IMG/VR virus record: IMGVR_UViG_2778261667_000008
Coordinates: 1-44,055 of that record
From: a virus
Taxonomy: Duplodnaviria; Heunggongvirae; Uroviricota; Caudoviricetes
Reading direction: 5' to 3' (one strand)
Length of the DNA stretch: 44,055 nucleotides
The translations under genes and the position numbers were made by a program. The first letter of the stretch is position 1. Each line of letters begins with the position of its first letter. Positions 33,318 through 44,055 of the stretch are shown piece by piece. Below the pieces are notes generated by a model. The model was not told the origin of the DNA and did no database searches. It was given only the letters and a program-made list of their open reading frames with translations.

Positions 33318-34175
33318 TTACCCCCTGAAGCCTGGCGGGATCGCACTATCCGGTAACGAGACGGTGTTAACCTGTCGGAGTAACGTCTCAGGTCGAACAC
33401 CTTTCGGCGCGAACAAGCCCTGGTATTCATTGGCGATGCTGTGTCGAATCACCTGCTCAGGTGAAAAACCCTGCTGGCGGAATTTTTCCAGCTCCCGTAT
33501 CGCCCCGTTAGCGCCCTGCTCCGTTCGAATCGGTTTTCGCAATGCCTGGCGAAATTCAACCCACTCACGCCAAAGCGAGACAGAAATCCAGTTCGGCAAA
33601 GCAATATCCAGAGGGTCAAACTTTTTGACACCTCGATTCCCCCGGGGGGGATTTAGGGGGGGATCTGTTTTTAGATCTTTATCTGTATCTTTATTAGTTG
33701 CCTTTGTGTTGACATCATGTTCAAACACCACTTCAACATCTGTTTGAACACCTGTTAAATTTCTCTCTTGTTTTGTTTGAACATCTGCTTCCTTTCTGCT
33801 TCTTCTGGCCTGAACAGATGCTTTTCCTGCGGCTGATTTTTTGGTTAATTTTTCCCTGACTGATGCCAGATCTTCCTCAATCCGAAGATGCACCCATTCC
33901 TCGCCGTTATCGCAAAAAAACTCCTGCAAGGATGGTTCAACATCAGCCCATCGCTCGTTAGTCAGACGGGCAATTTTTGCCAGCCTGTTTTTAGGTATTG
34001 GCTTTCCTGTTTGCCAGTAATTGAACATCAGCAACAAATACGCACCATGCTCCTCTGCTGACAAATGCATGGTGTCAGCCAGGTAATCAGCTATGTACAG
34101 TTGCATGTATGGTAATGCGGCCATAATTGCCCCGTATGATGCTGCCCGGTGGCTTAGAATAAGCACAAACAGCAT
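33318..34175 (-). CDS. ydaU: Replication initiation protein (O-like, YdaU family)
   Basis: 285 aa, paired with DnaC-like ydaV; true start may be the internal ATG near 34124 (MAALPYMQLYIADY...). Confidence 0.7.
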   Translation of the reverse strand: MLFVLILSHRAASYGAIMAALPYMQLYIADYLADTMHLSAEEHGAYLLLMFNYWQTGKPIPKNRLAKIARLTNERWADVEPSLQEFFCDNGEEWVHLRIEEDLASVREKLTKKSAAGKASVQARRSRKEADVQTKQERNLTGVQTDVEVVFEHDVNTKATNKDTDKDLKTDPPLNPPRGNRGVKKFDPLDIALPNWISVSLWREWVEFRQALRKPIRTEQGANGAIRELEKFRQQGFSPEQVIRHSIANEYQGLFAPKGVRPETLLRQVNTVSLPDSAIPPGFRG

Positions 34176-34187
34176 GGAAACTTTTGC

Positions 34188-34610
34188 TTAATGAACAATG
34201 ACAGAATCGTCGGAAGAACCGCCGCCGCTGAAATGCGCTTTCCGGTAAACGGCTTGGACTGCATCATCATGCGCATCAATTGCCGTACTTAACGCTTCCT
34301 GCGCCGCCAGTAATGCACGGCGTTCCAGGGTATCGAAGATGCAGAGTCGGTGACGCAGCTCGCGCGGAAGGATTGCCAGAATTGCTGGGATCAGCTTCTG
34401 AATTTTTTCTCTTTGCGTTTTCGTTTCACCTTTCAACCAACGGTGATAGATATTCTGCTGATTGTTCCAGTCCTTGCCTGGAACCAGGGGCAATTCGCCG
34501 CCCCCCTGGCGCAGATATTCTTCAGTAATTGCATTGGCTACCCATGCCTGCCCTTTTTCGGCTGCTAGGGCAAACAACACTGATTCGATGTGCTCATGCT
34601 TGATTTTCAT
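34188..34610 (-). CDS. ydaT: YdaT (cI-repressed early protein, toxic when derepressed)
   Basis: 140 aa, follows ydaS in the leftward early operon; matches my recollection of Rac YdaT. Confidence 0.75.
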   Translation of the reverse strand: MKIKHEHIESVLFALAAEKGQAWVANAITEEYLRQGGGELPLVPGKDWNNQQNIYHRWLKGETKTQREKIQKLIPAILAILPRELRHRLCIFDTLERRALLAAQEALSTAIDAHDDAVQAVYRKAHFSGGGSSDDSVIVH

Positions 34611-34632
34611 GAATCATTTGCCTCTTGATGTT

Positions 34633-34929
34633 TCAGGTATGATCAAATGAGGATTTGTTACTGTCATTTAGTTGCTTCACTGACATATTCTGCGAACAAC
34701 ATGCCGAACGTCGTAAATATGACCAGTCAATATCAGGACGAAGTTCTTCGCACAGAACCTCACCTCTTGTTGCACGTTCAATTGCTGGACATCTCTCGGC
34801 AGGCAATTGACGTACCCCTTTGATCCATTGATTTACGCTTGGAGGTGATACACCTAAAAGCCTAGCCATTGCTGATTGCCCACCGACAACAGCACAAGCT
34901 TGCTTGAATGAATAGTTCTCTTTTTTCAT
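34633..34929 (-). CDS. ydaS: Cro-like HTH regulator YdaS
   Basis: 98 aa with HTH (QACAVVGGQSAMARLLGVSPPSVNQWIKG); divergent from racR across an operator-containing intergenic region. Confidence 0.8.
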   Translation of the reverse strand: MKKENYSFKQACAVVGGQSAMARLLGVSPPSVNQWIKGVRQLPAERCPAIERATRGEVLCEELRPDIDWSYLRRSACCSQNMSVKQLNDSNKSSFDHT

Positions 34930-34958
34930 CGAATGAACTCCAAAAACACACAGAAATA

Positions 34959-35023
34959 TTAGGCGACGCCTAACGCAATTGTCAATAGGCTGTGCCTAAT
35001 GCGGTAAGGGTAGGGATTGCCTA
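34959..35023. promoter_or_regulatory. Operator cluster in the ydaS-racR divergent promoter region (three TAGGC-N3-GCCTA palindromes)
   Basis: TTAGGCGACGCCTAA at 34959..34973, TAGGCTGTGCCTA at 34986..34998, TAGGGATTGCCTA (one mismatch) at 35011..35023. Confidence 0.6.
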
Positions 35024-35052
35024 ATGTAATGCGCATAGGAGAATATTAAGCA

Positions 35053-35529
35053 ATGCTTAGTGGTAAAGACTTAGGCCGAGCGATAGAGCAGGCCATTAAC
35101 AAAAAAATCGCATCGGGATCCGTCAAATCAAAGGCGGAGGTCGCACGCCACTTCAAAGTCCAACCACCATCAATTTATGACTGGATTAAGAAAGGCTCTA
35201 TAAGTAAAGATAAACTTCCAGAATTATGGCGTTTCTTTTCTGATGTTGTTGGTCCAGAGCATTGGGGGCTTAACGAATACCCCATACCAACCCCCACCAA
35301 TTCAGATACAAAAAGTGAACTTTTAGATATAAACAACCTTTATCAAGCAGCCTCTGATGAAATAAGAGCGATTGTAGCTTTCCTGTTATCTGGAAATGCT
35401 ACAGAACCAGATTGGGTTGACCACGATGTTCGCGCCTATATAGCAGCGATGGAAATGAAAGTGGGTAAGTATCTGAAAGCTCTAGAATCTGAACGGAAAA
35501 GCCAGAACATCACAAAAACTGGAACTTAA
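35053..35529 (+). CDS. racR: Prophage repressor RacR (HTH)
   Basis: 158 aa; HTH near the N-terminus; divergent from the cro-like ydaS; sequence consistent with my recollection of K-12 RacR. Confidence 0.85.
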   Translation: MLSGKDLGRAIEQAINKKIASGSVKSKAEVARHFKVQPPSIYDWIKKGSISKDKLPELWRFFSDVVGPEHWGLNEYPIPTPTNSDTKSELLDINNLYQAASDEIRAIVAFLLSGNATEPDWVDHDVRAYIAAMEMKVGKYLKALESERKSQNITKTGT

Positions 35530-35626
35530 ACTTATATGGTCTGACGGAAAACTCCTGGATTCCGTTATTTAACCCCCCCATCACTTTCTGCTGTCGCCAT
35601 CACCTATTAGGTTACGCTCAAAACAT

Positions 35627-35664
35627 TAGGCATAGCCTATTGACAATCAATTAGGCATTACCTA
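35627..35664. promoter_or_regulatory. Second operator cluster downstream of racR (OL-like)
   Basis: TAGGCATAGCCTA at 35627..35639 and TAGGCATTACCTA (one mismatch) at 35652..35664, same 13-bp palindrome family as in the ydaS-racR region. Confidence 0.5.
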
Positions 35665-35837
35665 TAGTTCCAGCATACCACCCACCCCGCCCCACAGAAC
35701 GCCGGGCAATACTTCGAGTTACCAGGCAGTGGTAAGGGGTTAAGTAGCCAGCCCGAGGCGTATGAACATGACGGCGGGATTCAAATTTTGCAGTGCAGCA
35801 GTTAGTTCCGCCACCCGGCGTTAAGGGGAGAGATAAG

Positions 35838-35972
35838 ATGGTGCATTACGAAGTAGTTCAGTATTTGATGGATTGTTGCGGTATCACTTACAACCAGGCT
35901 GTGCAGGCTTTACGCAGCAACGACTGGGATCTCTGGCAGGCAGAAGTCGCTATACGTAGCAACAAGATGTGA
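35838..35972 (+). CDS. ydaG: Small early protein (44 aa)
   Basis: Below the ORF-track cutoff. ATG at 35838 with AAGGGGAGAG SD; hand translation MVHYEVVQYLMDCCGITYNQAVQALRSNDWDLWQAEVAIRSNKM; name assigned by synteny and length. Confidence 0.5.
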   Translation: MVHYEVVQYLMDCCGITYNQAVQALRSNDWDLWQAEVAIRSNKM

Positions 35973-35982
35973 GATTCGCAAA

Positions 35983-36138
35983 ATGCAAAAAATCGACCTC
36001 GGCAACAACGAATCCCTGGTGTGCGGCGTGTTCCCCAACCAGGATGGAACGTTCACTGCCATGACGTATACCAAAAGCAAAACATTTAAAACCGAAACTG
36101 GTGCGCGCCGATGGTTGGAGAAGCACACAGTAAGCTAA
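35983..36138 (+). CDS. ydaF: Small early protein (51 aa)
   Basis: Below the ORF-track cutoff. Hand translation MQKIDLGNNESLVCGVFPNQDGTFTAMTYTKSKTFKTETGARRWLEKHTVS; stop overlaps the sieB 3' end; name by synteny and length. Confidence 0.5.
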   Translation: MQKIDLGNNESLVCGVFPNQDGTFTAMTYTKSKTFKTETGARRWLEKHTVS

Positions 36139-36623
36139 CGATTAAAACGTCTACTCCTGCTGTTCCAGAATAACTTCATAAAATGGGAGTATTTTTCGGT
36201 GACGAGATAATAAGAACAGTTTGCGCTATCACTCTGATGTTGAATGATGCCCTTCCGTTCTAATTTTTTCATAACCGGGTTACGGCAAGGAGAAGTGATA
36301 ATAAGATTTCCTGTTTTAAGGAAATCTTTAAATACAGCGATTTCTTTCTCAGATAAACGAAGCAATACTCGTTGCTCTGGTAGTAATGAATAATGCTTTT
36401 GAATATGTGCTCGCAATCTTGAGAAGGAAATGGCGACCACGAAAGAAAAGGCAAAAACGATAATCTGAAAGAGCCAAGGTATTTCAGTATAAGCATTGAA
36501 TGCGACAGTAAACTCTTTCGGTATCAGCCAGAGAGTGAGACCAAAAATGATAATCGTATACATAAGTCTTTCGAGTGGCTCGTTAGCAAAAAGTTTCAAC
36601 AATGGAGTAAATACATCCAACAT
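36135..36623 (-). CDS. sieB: Superinfection exclusion protein B
   Basis: From the ATG at 36623 (MLDVFTPLLKLFANEPLERLMYTIIIFGLTLWLIP...) the sequence matches my recollection of Rac SieB; TM segments; the track ORF extends upstream to 36746. Confidence 0.8.
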   Translation of the reverse strand: MLDVFTPLLKLFANEPLERLMYTIIIFGLTLWLIPKEFTVAFNAYTEIPWLFQIIVFAFSFVVAISFSRLRAHIQKHYSLLPEQRVLLRLSEKEIAVFKDFLKTGNLIITSPCRNPVMKKLERKGIIQHQSDSANCSYYLVTEKYSHFMKLFWNSRSRRFNR

Positions 36624-37064
36624 ATCAATAACTCTCAACTGTAAGGGTATTGAAATGTTAACACAAGCTCTCGCTGTAGGGGTATAGCCGAGACCACCGA
36701 AGCCCGGAGGTGGTGAAATAAAACCGGGCACAACACGAAGGCGCATTTCCGATATCCATAAAGAGTCGGTCTTGTCTGTTAAATTTAAATGGTGGGAGTG
36801 CGCCTCCGGTTGTAAATAACGACATTGCTGTGTGTAGTCCTGGCGGCATCAGTTTTTTTCTTGAAGTTCGGCTGATGTCCGCCCTTTTTAAAGTGAATTT
36901 TGTGATGCGGTGAATGCGGCTAAGCGCACGTGGCACAGTTAAAAGTCATGTTAGTCCTTATTGGTTTGGGTGGGAAAGCCGACTGTAATTGTTAACTGGT
37001 TGCAGTCACCTGGAGGCACCAGGCACCGCATCAACAAAGTTCATTTGTAAAAATGGAGATAATT

Positions 37065-37286
37065 ATGATTGCACATCACTTCGGAACTGATGAAATACCA
37101 CGTCAGTGTGTGACTCCTGGCGATTATGTTCTTCATGAAGGCCGGACATATATTGCCTCGGCAAACAATATTAAAAAGCGAAAACTATATATTCGTAACC
37201 TGACCACAAAAACATGCATTACTGACCGCATGATTAAAGTCTTCCTCGGTCGTGATGGTTTACCTGTAAAGGCGGAGTCATGGTGA
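37065..37286 (+). CDS. kilR: Cell-division (FtsZ) inhibitor KilR
   Basis: 73 aa from the ATG at 37065 with GGAGAT SD ([14 protein letters not shown]...); matches my recollection of KilR. Confidence 0.8.
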
Positions 37287-37456
37287 TGACTAAGAAAATA
37301 AAATGTGCTTACCACCTTTGCAAAAAAGACGTTGAAGAAAGCAAAGCTATTGAAAGAATGCTTCACTTCATGCACGGGATTTTATCAAAAGACGAACCGA
37401 GAAAATATTGCAGTGAAGCTTGTGCCGAAAAAGACCAGATGGCACATGAACTTTAA
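37286..37456 (+). CDS. ydaE: Small zinc-ribbon protein
   Basis: Below the ORF-track cutoff. 56 aa, [14 protein letters not shown]...CSEACAEKDQMAHEL with two Cys pairs; start overlaps the kilR stop (TGATG). Confidence 0.6.
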   Translation: MTKKIKCAYHLCKKDVEESKAIERMLHFMHGILSKDEPRKYCSEACAEKDQMAHEL

Positions 37457-37530
37457 TTAATTGACTATTCGAAACTGAATTTATGCCAGAAATGGCAGGT
37501 ATTCGCTCAACCTTAATTAAGGAGAAAAAC

Positions 37531-37806
37531 ATGATTACCAATTATGAAGCCACTGTTGTAACTACCGATGACATTGTTCACGAGGTGAATCTGGAAGGAA
37601 AGCGCATTGGCTACGTAATTAAAACAGAAAATAAAGAAACCCCATTCACTGTGGTTGATATCGATGGTCCATCAGGCAACGTAAAAACACTTGATGAAGG
37701 TGTCAAAAAAATGTGCCTGGTGCATATCGGAAAGAATCTGCCCACAGAAAAAAAAGCCGAATTTCTGGCAACTCTAATTGCAATGAAATTAAAAGGTGAA
37801 ATCTGA
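37531..37806 (+). CDS. racC: RacC
   Basis: 91 aa from the ATG at 37531 with AAGGAG SD (MITNYEATVVTTDDIVHEV...); immediately upstream of recE. Confidence 0.75.
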   Translation: MITNYEATVVTTDDIVHEVNLEGKRIGYVIKTENKETPFTVVDIDGPSGNVKTLDEGVKKMCLVHIGKNLPTEKKAEFLATLIAMKLKGEI

Positions 37807-37907
37807 AAGAAATAGCCTGCGTATGGCGCAGGCTATGAACAGTGTGTATCCGGCAAGATCATTCACTGAACAAAACGAATTTTAATCTGAGTTGAGGTTA
37901 AAAAACA

Positions 37908-40900
37908 ATGAGCACAAAACCACTCTTCCTGTTACGGAAAGCGAAAAAATCATCCGGTGAACCTGACGTCGTCCTGTGGGCAAGCAACGATTTTGAATCG
38001 ACCTGTGCCACTCTGGACTACCTGATCGTTAAGTCAGGTAAAAAACTGAGCAGCTATTTTAAAGCTGTTGCCACGAATTTTCCTGTCGTTAATGACCTGC
38101 CCGCTGAAGGTGAGATCGATTTTACCTGGAGTGAACGCTATCAACTCAGCAAAGACTCCATGACATGGGAACTAAAACCGGGAGCAGCACCAGACAACGC
38201 TCACTATCAAGGCAATACCAACGTCAACGGCGAAGACATGACTGAGATTGAGGAGAATATGCTACTCCCAATTTCTGGCCAGGAACTGCCCATTCGTTGG
38301 CTTGCTCAACACGGCAGCGAAAAACCGGTAACGCACGTTTCACGCGACGGACTCCAGGCATTACACATTGCTCGGGCTGAAGAACTACCGGCTGTTACTG
38401 CCCTGGCTGTTTCCCACAAAACCAGCCTGCTCGACCCGCTGGAAATTCGCGAACTCCACAAACTGGTTCGTGACACTGACAAAGTTTTCCCTAATCCTGG
38501 TAATTCAAACCTGGGACTGATAACTGCTTTTTTCGAAGCATACCTGAACGCTGACTACACCGATCGAGGACTGCTGACAAAAGAGTGGATGAAGGGTAAT
38601 CGTGTTTCACACATCACTCGCACGGCTTCCGGTGCTAATGCTGGCGGCGGAAACCTCACCGATCGCGGCGAAGGTTTCGTACACGATCTGACGTCACTGG
38701 CGCGCGACGTAGCCACTGGCGTACTGGCCCGTTCAATGGATCTGGACATCTATAACCTTCATCCGGCACACGCTAAACGCATTGAGGAAATTATCGCTGA
38801 AAATAAACCGCCCTTTTCTGTTTTCCGCGACAAATTCATCACCATGCCTGGCGGGCTGGATTATTCCCGCGCCATCGTGGTTGCGTCCGTAAAAGAAGCA
38901 CCAATTGGGATCGAGGTCATCCCCGCGCACGTCACTGAATATCTGAACAAAGTACTGACTGAAACCGATCATGCCAACCCTGATCCGGAAATCGTGGATA
39001 TTGCCTGCGGTCGCTCCTCTGCCCCGATGCCGCAGCGAGTAACAGAAGAAGGAAAACAGGATGATGAAGAAAAACCGCAACCATCTGGAACAACGGCAGT
39101 TGAACAGGGAGAGGCTGAAACAATGGAACCGGACGCAACTGAACATCATCAGGACACGCAGCCGCTGGATGCTCAGTCACAGGTAAATTCTGTTGATGCG
39201 AAATATCAGGAACTGCGGGCAGAACTCCATGAAGCCCGGAAAAACATTCCATCAAAAAATCCTGTCGATGCCGATAAATTGCTTGCTGCATCACGTGGTG
39301 AATTTGTTGACGGAATTAGCGACCCGAACGATCCGAAATGGGTAAAGGGGATCCAGACTCGCGACTCTGTGTACCAGAACCAGCCAGAAACGAAACAAAA
39401 CACGCCAGAAACTGTAAAAACCAGCCCGGATGTGAAACAACCTGAGCCAGTAGTGCAACAGAAACCGGAAATAGTCTGCAATGCCTGCGGTCAGACTGGC
39501 GGGGATAACTGCCCTGACTGTGGTGCGGTGATGGGCGACGCAACATACCAGGAAACATTCGATGAAGAGAATCAGGTTGAAGCTAAGGAAAATGATCCGG
39601 AGGAAATGGAAGGCGCTGAACATCCGCACAAGGAGAACGCTAGCAACCATCCGCATCACGATTGCAGTGATGAAACTGGTGAAGCGTCAGCTCATGTAGC
39701 AACTGAAATCATGTGGCCGTCATATTTCGAGCCTGGCCGCTATGAAAACCTCCCGAACGAGGTTTATCACTCCGCCAACGGAATAAGCAGCACAATGCTG
39801 AAGGATGCCCGCATCAGTCTGATGTATTACCACGGGCGGCACATTGCCGGAACTATTCCGAACGAGGAAAGTGATGCATTGCTGCGTGGGCGGATCATTC
39901 ACAGCTATGTTCTGGAAACGGATAAATTCGCTGATGAATATGCCATTCCGGTACCGGTTCCTGAATATGTGGTTACTACTTCTAACGAACTGATCACCAT
40001 CATTAAAAAACACAATGCCAGTCTGCCATCACTGATGACACCAGAGCAGATGAAAGAGTGGATCGAAAGCTACAACAGCACTCTTATACAGCCACTGTCG
40101 GTAAGCGCTGGGGCCGAAGAAACAGGCATCCTTTACGGTTCGCTTCCGGAGGAATTTCGGCGTATTCCTGAGGGGGAAAAACACACAGCATCAGCAATGA
40201 AAGCCTGTATTAAAGAATACAACGCAAGCCTCCCTCCTCTGCTGAAAACCAGTGGAACACGGGAGCAGCTTCTGGAGCAAATTGAAACTGTAGATCCAGA
40301 ACTGGCAAAAAAAGAACGTGCTAAATCGTTGCCTTACAACATCAGTGGCACAAAAGAGCAATTAACCGAAATCGCCCGGAAAATTCGCCCGGAACTGGTA
40401 ACACTGGAGGACTGGCAAAAACGCCAGCAAGAAGAAAATGCAGGAAAAACGTTTATCAGTCCAGATATGTATGAACAGGCAAAAAATATTCACGCGGCAC
40501 TGCAAAACAATACTGACGCGGCAAGACTACTCAACCACCCGGATCGCAAATCTGAAATCAGCTATTTCGGGTTTGATGAAGAAACCGGGCTGGAAATCAG
40601 AGTCCGCCCTGATATCGAAATCCGACTGCCATACGAAAGCATCTGCGCCGACGTGAAATCAGTAAGCCTCGGTTATGTGCGGCAAGAACGACTAAAAGAT
40701 CGCTTACACCGTGAAATTATTGAACGTGATTATCACCTGAGCGCCGCAATGTACTGCGATGTGGCAAACCTGGACAAATTTTTCTGGATCTTCGTCAACA
40801 AAGATGCTGGCTATCACTGGGTGGCTGTCGTGGAAGCCTCGCAGGAACTCCTGGAACTTGGTCGACAGGAATATCGCCGGACGCTACGACAGATAAACGA

Positions 40901-41000
40901 AGCGCTGGAGACAAACAACTGGCCAGCACCGATTACCGAAAGTTATACCGACGAATTAAACGACTTTGATCTTCGTCGTCTTGAAGCACTGAGCATCTGA
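37908..41000 (+). CDS. recE: Exodeoxyribonuclease VIII (RecE), full-length 1030-aa form
   Basis: N-terminus [46 protein letters not shown]... matches my recollection of RecE; internal Cys cluster [16 protein letters not shown]; nuclease-type C-terminal third. Confidence 0.85.
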
Positions 41001-41011
41001 GGAAGGACACA

Positions 41012-42064
41012 ATGAACGAATTAACTCAACAAGAAAATATTAACTCTAATGTTGCGGTTTTCAGCCCTCAGTCTCTGGCTGCAATTCAGACGTTTTCTCA
41101 GGTAATGGCTTCCGGCATGGCTACTGTACCGGAACACCTCCGAGGAAATCCATCAGACTGCATGGCCATCACCATGCAGGCGATGCAGTGGCAAATGAAC
41201 CCTTACGCAGTAGCTCAGAAAACTTTCGTTGTGAATGGTGTGCTCGGATATGAAGCGCAACTGGTTAATGCCGTAATCAGTACTCGTGGGCCGCTAACCG
41301 GGCGTATTGAATATGACTGGTTCGGGCCGTGGGAAAAAATTATCGGGAAATTTGAAATCAGGAAGAACGACAAAGGGAAAGAATATCGTGTACCTGGCTG
41401 GAAGCTGGCCGATGAAAACGGGATCGGAGTTCGCGTCCAGGCAACACTACGCGGAGAGAGCAAACCACGCGTACTGGAGTTACTTCTGGCGCAGGCCAGA
41501 ACACGTAACTCAACGTTATGGGCCGATGATCCTCGTCAGCAGCTTGCCTATCTGGCACTGAAACGCTGGGCGCGCCTTTATTGCCCTGAAGTGATTCTTG
41601 GAGTGTACACCCGGGACGAACTGGACGAACCACAGGAAAAAATCATTAATCCGGTTCAGGAACATAAAAACACATCCGCCTGCCGTGCGGAACGTGAAAC
41701 AACAATTATTGAGCAGGATGCAGGGGAAAACTGGATCAGTGCTTTCCGTGAACGTATTGAGCAGGCACAAAGCACCGGAGAAACAACAGCACTTCGGCAG
41801 GAAGTGGAAGAGCATAAAAATACACTTGGCGTTCTCTATACGGAACTTAAAGGAAAAGTGGTTCAGCGTCATCACCGTCTCAATGCTATTGCCCGTATTG
41901 AGAAGATGATAAATGAGCTGACTTCATCAGGTGATCCGGAAGCAGAACAAAAATTTACTGCTCTGGAAAATGCGTTGAATGCTGCACGACCACATCTGGG
42001 AGAATTATATGAGGCGTATAAAACGACACTGACAGATATGAAACCAGAATATATCGGCTCCTGA
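41012..42064 (+). CDS. Single-strand annealing protein partner of RecE (Red-beta-like rather than RecT-like by my reading)
   Basis: 350 aa immediately after recE; the N-terminal half (NPYAVAQKTFVVNGVLGYEAQ..., ...LWADDPRQQLAYLALKRWARLYCPEV) loosely resembles lambda Bet and does not resemble my recollection of K-12 RecT. Confidence 0.5.
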   Translation: MNELTQQENINSNVAVFSPQSLAAIQTFSQVMASGMATVPEHLRGNPSDCMAITMQAMQWQMNPYAVAQKTFVVNGVLGYEAQLVNAVISTRGPLTGRIEYDWFGPWEKIIGKFEIRKNDKGKEYRVPGWKLADENGIGVRVQATLRGESKPRVLELLLAQARTRNSTLWADDPRQQLAYLALKRWARLYCPEVILGVYTRDELDEPQEKIINPVQEHKNTSACRAERETTIIEQDAGENWISAFRERIEQAQSTGETTALRQEVEEHKNTLGVLYTELKGKVVQRHHRLNAIARIEKMINELTSSGDPEAEQKFTALENALNAARPHLGELYEAYKTTLTDMKPEYIGS

Positions 42065-42127
42065 TATTTACTATGGCGGCGTAGCCTCACCGCCATAACA
42101 AAACTTTATTTTATGAGAGAAAATACA

Positions 42128-42322
42128 ATGCGGTATGAAAAAGTCAAACCATGTCCATTTTGTGGTTGTTCATCAGTAACGGTGAAAGCCATCTCAGGAT
42201 ATTACCGAGCGAAGTGTAACGGATGCGAATCCCGAACCGGTTATGGTGGAAGTGAAAAAGAAGCACTCGAAAGATGGAATAAACGAACCACTGGAAATAA
42301 TAATGGAGGTGTTCATGTATAA
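42128..42322 (+). CDS. ralR: Restriction alleviation protein RalR (Lar)
   Basis: 64 aa from the ATG at 42128, MRYEKVKPCPFCGC..., zinc-ribbon Cys pairs; matches my recollection of RalR. Confidence 0.8.
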   Translation: MRYEKVKPCPFCGCSSVTVKAISGYYRAKCNGCESRTGYGGSEKEALERWNKRTTGNNNGGVHV

Positions 42323-42503
42323 AATTACCGCCACTATTGAAAAGGAAGGTGGCACTCCTACTAACTGGACAAGATATTCAAAATCTAAACTAACGAAATC
42401 AGAATGCGAAAAAATGCTCTCAGGTAAAAAAGAAGCAGGCGTTTCCAGAGAGCAGAAAGTAAAACTGATAAATTTTAATTGCGAGAAACTTCAGTCCTCG
42501 TGA
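42315..42503 (+). CDS. ydaC: Small protein YdaC-like
   Basis: Reading frame MYKITATIEKEGGTPTNW... with GGAGGT just upstream; overlaps the ralR 3' end; an alternative ATG lies at 42303. Name by synteny. Confidence 0.45.
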   Translation: MYKITATIEKEGGTPTNWTRYSKSKLTKSECEKMLSGKKEAGVSREQKVKLINFNCEKLQSS

Positions 42504-42602
42504 ATTGCACTGTATTCAAATTAAAACTTCATAGCTGATTATTAATAATCAACATCGGGCGTCAATTTCAGTCTAACATTGGCGCCTGCCAGAGGTGATG
42601 CG

Positions 42603-42818
42603 ATGGCACAAGTAATCTTTAATGAAGAGTGGATGGTTGAATACGGCCTAATGCTTCGCACTGGTCTGGGGGCCAGACAAATTGAAGCATACCGCCAGAA
42701 CTGTTGGGTGGAGGGCTTCCACTTCAAACGAGTATCTCCTTTAGGTAAGCCAGACAGCAAACGAGGGATTATCTGGTACAACTATCCAAAGATAAATCAG
42801 TTTATCAAAGACTCATGA
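42603..42818 (+). CDS. xisR: Excisionase
   Basis: 71 aa from the ATG at 42603 ([32 protein letters not shown]...); directly upstream of the integrase (stop and start form TGATATG). Confidence 0.8.
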
Positions 42819-42819
42819 T

Positions 42820-44055
42820 ATGTCTAAATTACCAACAGGTGTCGAGATTAGAGGTAGATACATTCGCATCTGGTTCATGTTTCGAGGAAAACGATGTCGG
42901 GAAACATTAAAAGGCTGGGAGATTACAAACAGTAATATTAAAAAGGCCGGAAATTTAAGAGCGCTGATAGTTCATGAAATAAACTCTGGTGAATTTGAGT
43001 ATTTAAGACGTTTTCCCCAGTCCAGCACTGGGGCAAAAATGGTGACAACGAGAGTCATAAAAACGTTCGGAGAACTTTGTGATATCTGGACAAAAATTAA
43101 AGAGACAGAGTTAACAACAAACACAATGAAGAAAACGAAATCACAATTAAAAACACTCAGAATAATAATTTGTGAAAGTACCCCGATATCACATATTCGT
43201 TATAGCGATATCTTAAACTACCGGAATGAACTGCTGCATGGAGAAACGCTTTACCTGGATAATCCAAGATCCAACAAAAAAGGAAGAACCGTGCGCACAG
43301 TTGATAACTATATCGCCCTGCTCTGTTCGCTGTTGCGTTTTGCGTATCAGTCGGGATTTATATCAACCAAACCATTTGAAGGAGTAAAAAAATTACAGCG
43401 AAACAGAATAAAGCCTGATCCGTTATCTAAAACAGAATTCAATGCATTAATGGAAAGTGAAAAAGGACAGAGCCAGAACTTGTGGAAATTTGCCGTTTAC
43501 TCAGGACTTCGTCACGGGGAACTGGCAGCTCTGGCGTGGGAGGATGTGGATCTCGAAAAGGGAATAGTGAATGTCAGAAGAAACCTGACGATACTTGATA
43601 TGTTCGGTCCCCCAAAAACAAATGCCGGGATCCGGACAGTAACACTACTGCAGCCTGCTCTTGAAGCACTGAAGGAGCAATACAAACTGACCGGGCATCA
43701 TCGCAAAAGCGAAATCACTTTTTATCATCGGGAGTACGGCAGAACCGAAAAGCAAAAACTGCATTTTGTTTTCATGCCCAGAGTGTGTAACGGAAAACAG
43801 AAACCTTATTACTCGGTAAGCAGTTTGGGTGCGAGATGGAATGCAGCAGTAAAACGTGCTGGTATTCGCCGCCGTAATCCGTACCATACGCGGCATACTT
43901 TTGCCTGCTGGCTGTTGACGGCAGGAGCGAACCCGGCGTTTATAGCCAGCCAGATGGGGCATGAAACTGCGCAGATGGTGTATGAAATTTACGGTATGTG
44001 GATTGATGACATGAACGACGAACAGGTAGCCATGTTGAATGCGCGGTTATCGTAG
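42820..44055 (+). CDS. intR: Tyrosine-type site-specific integrase
   Basis: 411 aa; C-terminal catalytic region with R...HTRHTF...Y-type motifs (NPYHTRHTFACWLL...YEIYGMW); stop codon TAG is the last 3 bases of the window. Confidence 0.9.
   Translation: MSKLPTGVEIRGRYIRIWFMFRGKRCRETLKGWEITNSNIKKAGNLRALIVHEINSGEFEYLRRFPQSSTGAKMVTTRVIKTFGELCDIWTKIKETELTTNTMKKTKSQLKTLRIIICESTPISHIRYSDILNYRNELLHGETLYLDNPRSNKKGRTVRTVDNYIALLCSLLRFAYQSGFISTKPFEGVKKLQRNRIKPDPLSKTEFNALMESEKGQSQNLWKFAVYSGLRHGELAALAWEDVDLEKGIVNVRRNLTILDMFGPPKTNAGIRTVTLLQPALEALKEQYKLTGHHRKSEITFYHREYGRTEKQKLHFVFMPRVCNGKQKPYYSVSSLGARWNAAVKRAGIRRRNPYHTRHTFACWLLTAGANPAFIASQMGHETAQMVYEIYGMWIDDMNDEQVAMLNARLS

Follow-up and report, generated by a model that had tools for sequence, protein, structure and literature searches.

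A probable RacR operator cluster downstream of racR suggests a lambdoid layout for the immunity region of the Rac prophage

The subject of this analysis is a short palindrome, TAGGC-N3-GCCTA, that recurs around racR, the gene of the prophage repressor RacR, in a 44,055-base stretch of tailed-phage DNA (IMG/VR virus record IMGVR_UViG_2778261667_000008; this whole stretch is hereafter called the window). The immunity region of the Rac prophage occupies approximately 34,600-36,200; across 2.5 kb this sequence is a 100% match to Escherichia coli strain 789, and in approximately 545 complete genomes 80% or more of these 2.5 kb is found at a single location. Here racR lies between the divergent gene ydaS on one side and, on the other, ydaG and ydaF at the head of a long block of early genes (table 1). 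The palindromes form two clusters, one in the ydaS-racR intergenic region (34930-35052) and the other between the racR stop (35529) and the start of ydaG (35838), which we call the left and the right cluster, respectively. The left cluster and its motif are already known, having been characterized experimentally, and are not new. The right cluster is very probably an undescribed "left operator" of RacR, which would silence the kil, recombination, excision and integration genes of the prophage.

Table 1. Features of the Rac immunity region and of the early genes that follow it (positions in the window; a point in the strand column marks features without orientation)
Feature	Position	Strand	Basis and remarks
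RacR-type immunity cassette: ydaS, left operators, racR, right operators, core of the PL-like promoter	34617..35675	.	Pairwise BLAST breakpoints
ydaS, Cro-like regulator, divergent from racR	34633..34929	-	Open reading frame (ORF) of 98 aa; Pfam YdaS_toxin E 2.6e-31, P22_Cro E 3.4e-9; annotated ydaS
PydaS (PR-like) promoter	34956..34985	-	-35 TTGACA 34985..34980, 18-nt spacer, -10 TAATAT 34961..34956; scan 10/12 matches
Operator TAGGCGACGCCTA, perfect	34960..34972	.	Within PydaS spacer, 2-bp overlap with -10; published O1
Operator TAGGCTGTGCCTA, perfect	34986..34998	.	Abuts PydaS -35; inside the published footprinted intergenic region
Operator TAGGGATTGCCTA, 1 mismatch	35011..35023	.	racR promoter region; TAGG(G/A)ATTGCCTA in all homologues
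Weak operator TAAGCAATGCTTA, 2 symmetric mismatches	35047..35059	.	Spans racR ATG; published start-codon operator
racR, prophage repressor, 158 aa	35053..35529	+	N-terminal helix-turn-helix (HTH) and C-terminal oligomerization domain, no S24 peptidase
Hairpin past racR stop	35544..35565	+	ACGGAA-n10-TTCCGT, -11 kcal/mol; no T-tract after it
Doubtful third right site TAGGTTACGCTCA	35608..35620	.	3 mismatches (2 in L001, L006 and L018); 19 bp from its neighbour, not 25
Candidate operator TAGGCATAGCCTA, perfect	35627..35639	.	Abuts -35 of PL-like promoter; kept downstream of RacR-type repressors in 7 independent distant loci
PL-like sigma-70 promoter, predicted	35640..35668	+	TTGACA 35640-35645, 17-nt spacer, TATAGT 35663-35668; 11/12; faces ydaG
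Candidate operator TAGGCATTACCTA, 1 mismatch	35652..35664	.	Fills promoter spacer, 2-bp overlap with -10
Conserved leader of the PL-like transcript, ~155 nt	35671..35837	+	Common to many immunity types
ydaG, 44 aa	35838..35972	+	First gene after PL-like promoter
ydaF, DUF1391	35983..36138	+	ORF/annotation, Pfam
Early operon, presumed PL-like-driven	35838..43294	+	ydaG, ydaF, kilR, ydaE, racC, recE, recT, ralR, rcbA, xisR, intR; annotation of the identical region of E. coli 789

The motif was counted over the window, with expectations taken from 100 shuffles. Exact copies of TAGGCNNNGCCTA are found three times, at the sites starting at 34960, 34986 and 35627, against an expectation of 0.01, and no shuffle out of 100 reached three. 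Allowing one mismatch adds the sites at 35011 and 35652, giving five matches in the whole window where 0.79 would be expected (0 of 100 shuffles reached five), all confined to 705 bp and divided between three in the left cluster and two in the right one. These counts and positions agree with the preliminary description of this DNA, which had listed five copies around racR, three on the left and two on the right with one imperfect copy on each side. Scanning with two mismatches gives no enrichment (10 matches in the window versus 12.6 expected), so that weak sites are not callable from statistics alone. The weak copy over the racR ATG is instead accepted because it is kept at the ATG in every homologue examined and coincides with a published footprint (PMC9638921); counting it, the left cluster has four sites rather than the three previously described.

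The left cluster is the very element for which RacR operators have been published in the Rac prophage of E. coli K-12, matching it in motif, in the positions of PydaS and the racR ATG and in the surrounding sequence. Three variant repeats of GCCTAA/TTAGGC had been noted in the 123-bp intergenic region, on which RacR forms three complexes in electrophoretic mobility shift assays (EMSA) and only one on a fragment with a single repeat; the same study reported enrichment of RacR at this region by chromatin immunoprecipitation (ChIP) with quantitative PCR, and found that RacR represses a fusion to the ydaS promoter (Krishnamurthi et al. 2017, PMC5700373). DNase I footprints of RacR over the intergenic region subsequently defined the consensus (T/A)TAGGC-n3-GCCTA(T/A), the PydaS promoter region (O1) being protected at the lowest RacR concentration, while the hexamers of PydaS (TTGACA-18-TAATAT) were mapped by primer extension and mutagenesis, and three racR promoters were mapped and the operators named, one of them with the racR ATG in its spacer (Wisniewska et al. 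2022, PMC9638921). A follow-up of 2023 speaks of four inverted repeats and ascribes the RacR octamer, which is observed in solution by size-exclusion chromatography, to the four intergenic sites (PMC11014345). The published EMSA, ChIP and footprinting data (PMC5700373, PMC9638921) bear out the earlier suggestion that this cluster constitutes a divergent operator resembling the right operator (OR) of phage lambda, and the repression of PydaS (PMC5700373) does the same for the control of ydaS by RacR, which had been stated there as established. Distant homologues (loci L007, L008, L010 and L016) have three left sites with centres at -60, -35 and 0 from the ATG, versus the four of E. coli Rac at -87, -61, -36 and 0, a difference suggesting that the module of the rightward (PR-type) promoter has moved outward by one site, with an extra operator placed between PydaS and racR.

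Turning to the right cluster, the promoter scan returns its best sigma-70 match of the region (35640-35668, hereafter the PL-like promoter after the leftward promoter PL of lambda) precisely between and beneath the two sites, which are 25 bp apart from centre to centre. When tested with the consensus including its flanking A/T, the site at 35627 is perfect (TTAGGCATAGCCTAT) and that at 35652 has one mismatch (TTAGGCATTACCTAT). The right module is the mirror image of the PydaS module, consisting of a site that abuts TTGACA, a further 6-7 nt, and a site that overlaps the -10 hexamer by 2 bp; once PydaS is reverse-complemented, the site 34986-34998 abuts TTGACA, followed by 7 nt and then by the site 34960-34972, which overlaps TAATAT by two bases. 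Judged from sequence, racR would be framed by two copies of a single promoter-operator module in mirror orientation, PydaS and the PL-like promoter. (The additional palindrome TAGGTTACGCTCA is absent from distant homologues and stays a weak candidate only.)

The same downstream module is found at other loci encoding RacR relatives, for which offsets run from the repressor stop codon to the centre of each site, the spacing of the pair being given instead where this was measured. The pair lies at +94 and +119 in Mixta mediterraneensis (62% identity to RacR), at +68 and +93 in Morganella morganii (57%), at +154 and +179 in Proteus mirabilis (60%) and, past inserted genes, at +1403 and +1428 in Klebsiella phage KpF5 (56%). 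Pairs with the same 25-bp spacing are also present approximately 1 kb downstream of the start of the repressor gene in Achromobacter (75% identity over the N-terminal 77 aa), approximately 1.2 kb beyond the repressor stop in Pigmentiphaga (74% over the N-terminal 77 aa) and in the downstream flank of the repressor of Pseudomonas phage SC_8_H2H8_2017 (L017; 42.5% over 109 aa). Each of these distant pairs has TTGAC(A/T) or TTTACA plus 6 nt between the sites and then (A/T)TAT, within flanks that are unrelated, and the paired module is present in seven of the eight independent distant loci, including those with repressors fused to an S24 peptidase.

At closer range, the right sites are identical or nearly so in diverged RacR-type loci of E. 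coli and Escherichia ruysiae, in E. coli phage vB_EcoS-683R6 and in Klebsiella phage KpF5, and in the 87%-identical variant L001 the arms of the sites are retained while their flanks and spacers drift. A logo of 51 sites over 17 bp shows the arm positions T, A, G, G and their mirror partners to be 90-100% conserved, whereas the three spacer positions vary and are A/T-rich. Moreover, mismatched sites carry no compensating change on the other arm (TAGGG/GCCTA, TAGGC/ACCTA). The combination of conserved arms, variable spacer and uncompensated mismatches points to recognition by a protein rather than to a hairpin function.

The loci L011 and L012 (Burkholderiales) and L017 encode repressors of about 290-300 aa whose N-terminal HTH, some 75 aa long and with up to 75% identity, is of the RacR type. 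Pfam recognizes a LexA-like S24 peptidase fused to this N-terminus in Pigmentiphaga (L012, E 3.6e-15) and in the Pseudomonas phage (L017, E 8.7e-18); the Achromobacter repressor is also long and aligns with that of Pigmentiphaga. In all three of these loci (L011, L012 and L017), TAGGC-N3-GCCTA operators lie on both sides of the repressor gene. Since operators are shared despite different C-terminal domains, the operator sequence appears to follow the DNA-binding domain, and these repressors would represent a natural domain swap between forms without a self-cleavage domain, such as RacR, and self-cleaving ones. Short repressors of the former kind belong to a class thought to depend on an antirepressor (PMC3121763).

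The two clusters also travel together. Many E. coli prophages resemble Rac in both flanks, with its ydaT at one end and the ydaG/ydaF or ydfA side at the other, but encode a different repressor in between. In pairwise BLAST comparisons with such heteroimmune prophages, homology ends at 34616-34618, on the ydaT/ydaS border, and resumes at 35671-35677, three to nine bases past the -10 hexamer of the PL-like promoter. These breakpoints fall outside both clusters, which consequently sit in a block of approximately 1.06 kb that is exchanged as a unit with racR and that, in its comparative pattern, would correspond to the classical definition of a lambdoid immunity region. Four other immunity types have their own repeat at both cluster positions, namely AGTACAT-type repeats in L002, GGTAAC...GTTACC in a LexA-family type, TTTAGATT/AATCTAAA in another type and AACAGTTTTT-type repeats in that of prophage CP-933P (L023).

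Beyond the distal breakpoint lies the conserved leader, which starts 3-17 nt from the -10 hexamer, a few bases from the predicted transcription start. Among 5426 complete E. coli genomes, 3767 contain it, in up to seven copies each and never annotated, as do sequenced E. coli phages (Evi, Tritos and the vB_Eco series); in K-12-derived strains it is 100% identical to the sequence found here. Leaders from six immunity types share on average 82% identity and an almost unchanging core, GGGCAATACTTCGAGTTACCAGGCAGTGGT.AGGGGTTAAGTAGCCAGCCCGAGGCGTA, and the 5' end is C-rich (ACCACCCACCCCGCCCCACAG) and could load Rho. RNAalifold detected no compensatory pairs (0) in the leader, and an Rfam search of 34000-37000 with E up to 1 returned no match at the operators or the leader, and only a sub-threshold DicF. 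A possible short ORF in the leader (ATGAACATGACGGCG...) shows synonymous changes, yet it is frameshifted in one variant.

According to published expression data, lowering RacR with the Csp231I C protein increases ydaC, kilR and ralA more than 70-fold and ydaF, ydaG, ydaE and racC approximately 40-fold (PMC6765115), and xisR and intR rise approximately 100-fold upon a drop of RacR; the authors note that the latter two genes are distant from racR, and call both the RacR regulon and the ydaFG operon uncharacterized (PMC11014345). Zygotic induction of the rac recombination functions (Low 1973, cited in PMC5917428) had long implied repressor control of recE. In the present sequence the operon genes as far as intR are all on the + strand, sieB lying within the early region on the opposite strand. 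A RacR-controlled promoter at 35640-35668 would stand at the head of this co-directional block ending in xisR-intR, and would explain these increases directly.

Our interpretation, to which we give a probability of roughly 85%, is that the palindromes are RacR operators in a lambdoid layout and that RacR bound at the right pair silences the promoter of the genes from ydaG to intR. A single RacR dimer would bind, via its N-terminal HTH, to each 13-bp site in the extended form (A/T)T-TAGGC-N3-GCCTA-A(T/A). On the left, the four sites cover the divergent ydaS promoter and the racR promoters, as others have established. On the right, RacR at the site abutting the -35 hexamer, or at the site covering the spacer and -10, would exclude RNA polymerase, since with sites so placed a dimer at either of them must clash with the enzyme. 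With polymerase excluded, ydaG-ydaF-kilR-ydaE-racC-recE-recT-ralR-rcbA-xisR-intR would remain silent; upon loss of RacR both promoters would open together, with the PL-like promoter as the likely main source of the ydaG...intR transcripts. Such simultaneous opening would explain why ydaS/ydaT have been reported to be induced together with kilR, xisR and intR. A role of the right cluster over the rightward early genes, similar to that of the left operator (OL) of lambda, had been proposed in the preliminary description, and is supported by the overlap with the promoter, the mirror image of PydaS, the conservation of the module, the immunity cassette and the transcript data, from which we infer the binding of RacR.

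Several points weigh against this interpretation. For the right cluster we found no published assay of binding, no promoter fusion and no mapping of a transcription start, and the published operator papers treat only the sites upstream of racR and within its start (PMC5700373, PMC9638921, PMC11014345); in the literature on RacR operators we found no mention of the 35627/35652 pair or of its promoter, a provisional statement given the incomplete literature coverage. The promoter-proximal site has a mismatch in one arm (ACCTA), and the locus of the RacR homologue in Klebsiella sp. R390 (L009) shows no downstream pair within its 2.5-kb flank. Shashni et al. (PMC4150792) considered kil expression as read-through from the racR promoter limited by a Rho-dependent terminator and did not invoke a separate promoter. 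Finally, part of the induction of downstream genes on RacR loss could be an indirect consequence of YdaS/YdaT, of excision or of racR read-through, and the published RNA-seq and quantitative reverse-transcription PCR data leave direct and indirect effects unseparated (PMC6765115, PMC11014345).

The read-through account leads to the alternative that fares best, and which is compatible with repression of a PL-like promoter, namely that the right pair serves mainly as a roadblock and looping anchor against racR read-through. RacR at the pair would halt transcripts heading for kilR, and a bridge formed by the octamer would tighten the repression of ydaS and the autoregulation of racR. The hairpin past the racR stop has no T-tract, whereas the heteroimmune relatives L020, L023 and L024 have clear intrinsic terminators at its position; in L001 it gains an extra G:C pair in both arms. 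Transcription of racR may on this evidence continue into the PL region, in agreement with the Rho-dependent 'trac' account and the reported Rho-limited read-through toward kil (PMC4150792), and RacR is an octamer in solution (PMC11014345) with clusters approximately 640-690 bp apart. A pure roadblock or anchor, however, would have no need of sites held in fixed register with near-consensus -35 and -10 hexamers in every homologue, nor does it sit well with a distance between pair and repressor gene that varies from 70 bp to 1.4 kb, and we consider it improbable as the principal function.

A related possibility, somewhat less improbable though still unlikely, adds to the operator function rather than replacing it: RacR octamers may bridge the two clusters in a loop of approximately 0.65 kb enclosing racR, the right pair being at once operator, loop anchor and, together with Rho, roadblock. 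Such an OL-OR loop is plausible because RacR is octameric and the clusters lie so close, but it is speculative. If it exists, the anchor would tighten the repression of ydaS, the octamer would represent 2 + 2 dimers across the loop instead of four in a row, and racR would be transcribed inside its own repression loop, in a geometry much tighter than that of lambda, where the OL-OR loop measures 2.3 kb.

The right cluster might also be a relic without function, its promoter-operator module having been duplicated and then left unused; in favour of this, Rac is defective and no experiment was found on the right site. We judge this quite unlikely, because the sites are kept in diverged RacR-type loci and in the sequenced phages vB_EcoS-683R6 and KpF5, because their arms are retained in L001 amid drift of flanks and spacers, and because the downstream genes respond strongly to the level of RacR. 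Binding of the right sites by the Cro-like YdaS alone, and not by RacR, might be envisaged from prophage CP-933P, in which the repressor and YdaS both repress the promoter PL933P (PMC8630535), and from the competition with RacR at the left operators that is attributed to YdaS; yet the right sites fit a consensus derived from RacR footprints, one of them perfectly, and the motif tracks the N-terminal domain of RacR into loci with unrelated flanks and different C-terminal domains, so that we regard this reading as highly unlikely. The notion that the palindromes act as nucleic-acid hairpins, either as racR terminator or as RNA element, is the least credible and is rejected on the pattern of conservation: two palindromes were flagged in the terminator scan and a 56-nt region folds better than shuffles (z ~ -3.4) owing to its repeated half-sites, but the stems have just 5 bp with no T-run after them on the racR strand, the arm sequence is conserved with uncompensated mismatches and a variable loop, and RacR footprints are published for the same motif (PMC9638921).

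Repression by RacR from both clusters would place Rac among prophages with the organization of lambda, as the preliminary description had proposed in comparing the layout with cI/OL/OR. The comparison holds up as an ordinary lambdoid arrangement, with RacR binding presumed at the right cluster. In both cases the repressor is octameric and its gene lies between two clusters of the same palindromic operator, each over a strong early promoter facing away from it (the right one here being predicted), and the operon corresponding to the leftward one of lambda contains kil, recombination, xis and int genes. Sites in Rac are spaced by 25-26 bp, near the 23-24 bp of lambda operators. Differences are also evident, since RacR (158 aa) lacks an S24 autocleavage domain and has a C-terminal domain unrelated to that of CI, Rac has 4 + 2 sites versus 3 + 3 in lambda, its operator is a 5-N3-5 palindrome versus 17 bp, and its right cluster lies approximately 100 bp past the repressor stop with no insert similar to rexAB; neither an N gene nor a nut site is evident after the PL-like promoter, and racR is reportedly not repressed by YdaS. 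As with cI, the transcript of racR is leaderless (PMC9638921).

A closer parallel is offered by prophage CP-933P of E. coli O157:H7, for which PaaR2, YdaS, PR933P, PRM933P and PL933P with OL1-3 have been described (Jurenas et al. 2021, PMC8630535) and gfp fusions show repression of PL933P by both PaaR2 and YdaS (PMC8630535). CP-933P shares with Rac its gene order, a homologous ydaT, homologous downstream flanks and, after PL, the conserved leader (L023). This shared position and leader suggest that the right cluster of Rac is the positional homologue of PL933P, even if the two prophages differ in the sequence of repressor and operators (AACAGTTTTT-type repeats), in the toxin-antitoxin pair that CP-933P has between repressor and PL, and in the number of sites, three OL sites being reported against two clear right sites in Rac.

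In prophage Qin, a short repressor of the antirepressor type, dicA, has operator sets at the dicC promoter and at dicBp (PMC10448788), and dicBp leads to ydfA (DUF1391, the YdaF family), dicF and a division inhibitor, comparable to ydaF, a DicF-like sequence and kilR in Rac. The two prophages differ in repressor specificity, and induction by the Rem antirepressor, urea and heat is known for Qin and not for Rac. The DicF-like sequence of Rac (36829-36884, + strand) aligns with the full-length Rfam model RF00039 with a score of 39.1 bits (E 2.5e-6), short of the gathering score of 48; its location between sieB and kilR corresponds to that of dicF in Qin, which precedes dicB.

One half of this OR/OL arrangement is therefore already known and the other is an expected new instance, which would not surprise a specialist. 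A right operator would nevertheless give a route for the rise of kilR, recET, xisR and intR and for the excision of Rac upon a drop of RacR, which have so far been in print without a mechanism. It would also mean that kil expression need not stem solely from racR read-through, as assumed in the work on silencing by Rho, and makes the RacR octamer worth reconsidering as a possible OL-OR bridge. The comparative set, in turn, defines a compact and portable promoter-operator module tied to one HTH domain, together with a case of repressor domain shuffling; beyond these points, the layout is the textbook lambdoid one.

Two minor observations concern individual proteins. YdaG has a Pfam match to UBA_4, a UBA-like family, with E 3e-5 and 24.1 bits against a cutoff of 21.8, which is odd for an early protein of a phage. 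A RacR 100% identical to that of E. coli is encoded on a 5.2-kb sequence (L005, JARKOR010000130.1) of a metagenome-assembled genome labelled Candidatus Nanosynbacter, an assignment that almost certainly reflects binning contamination.

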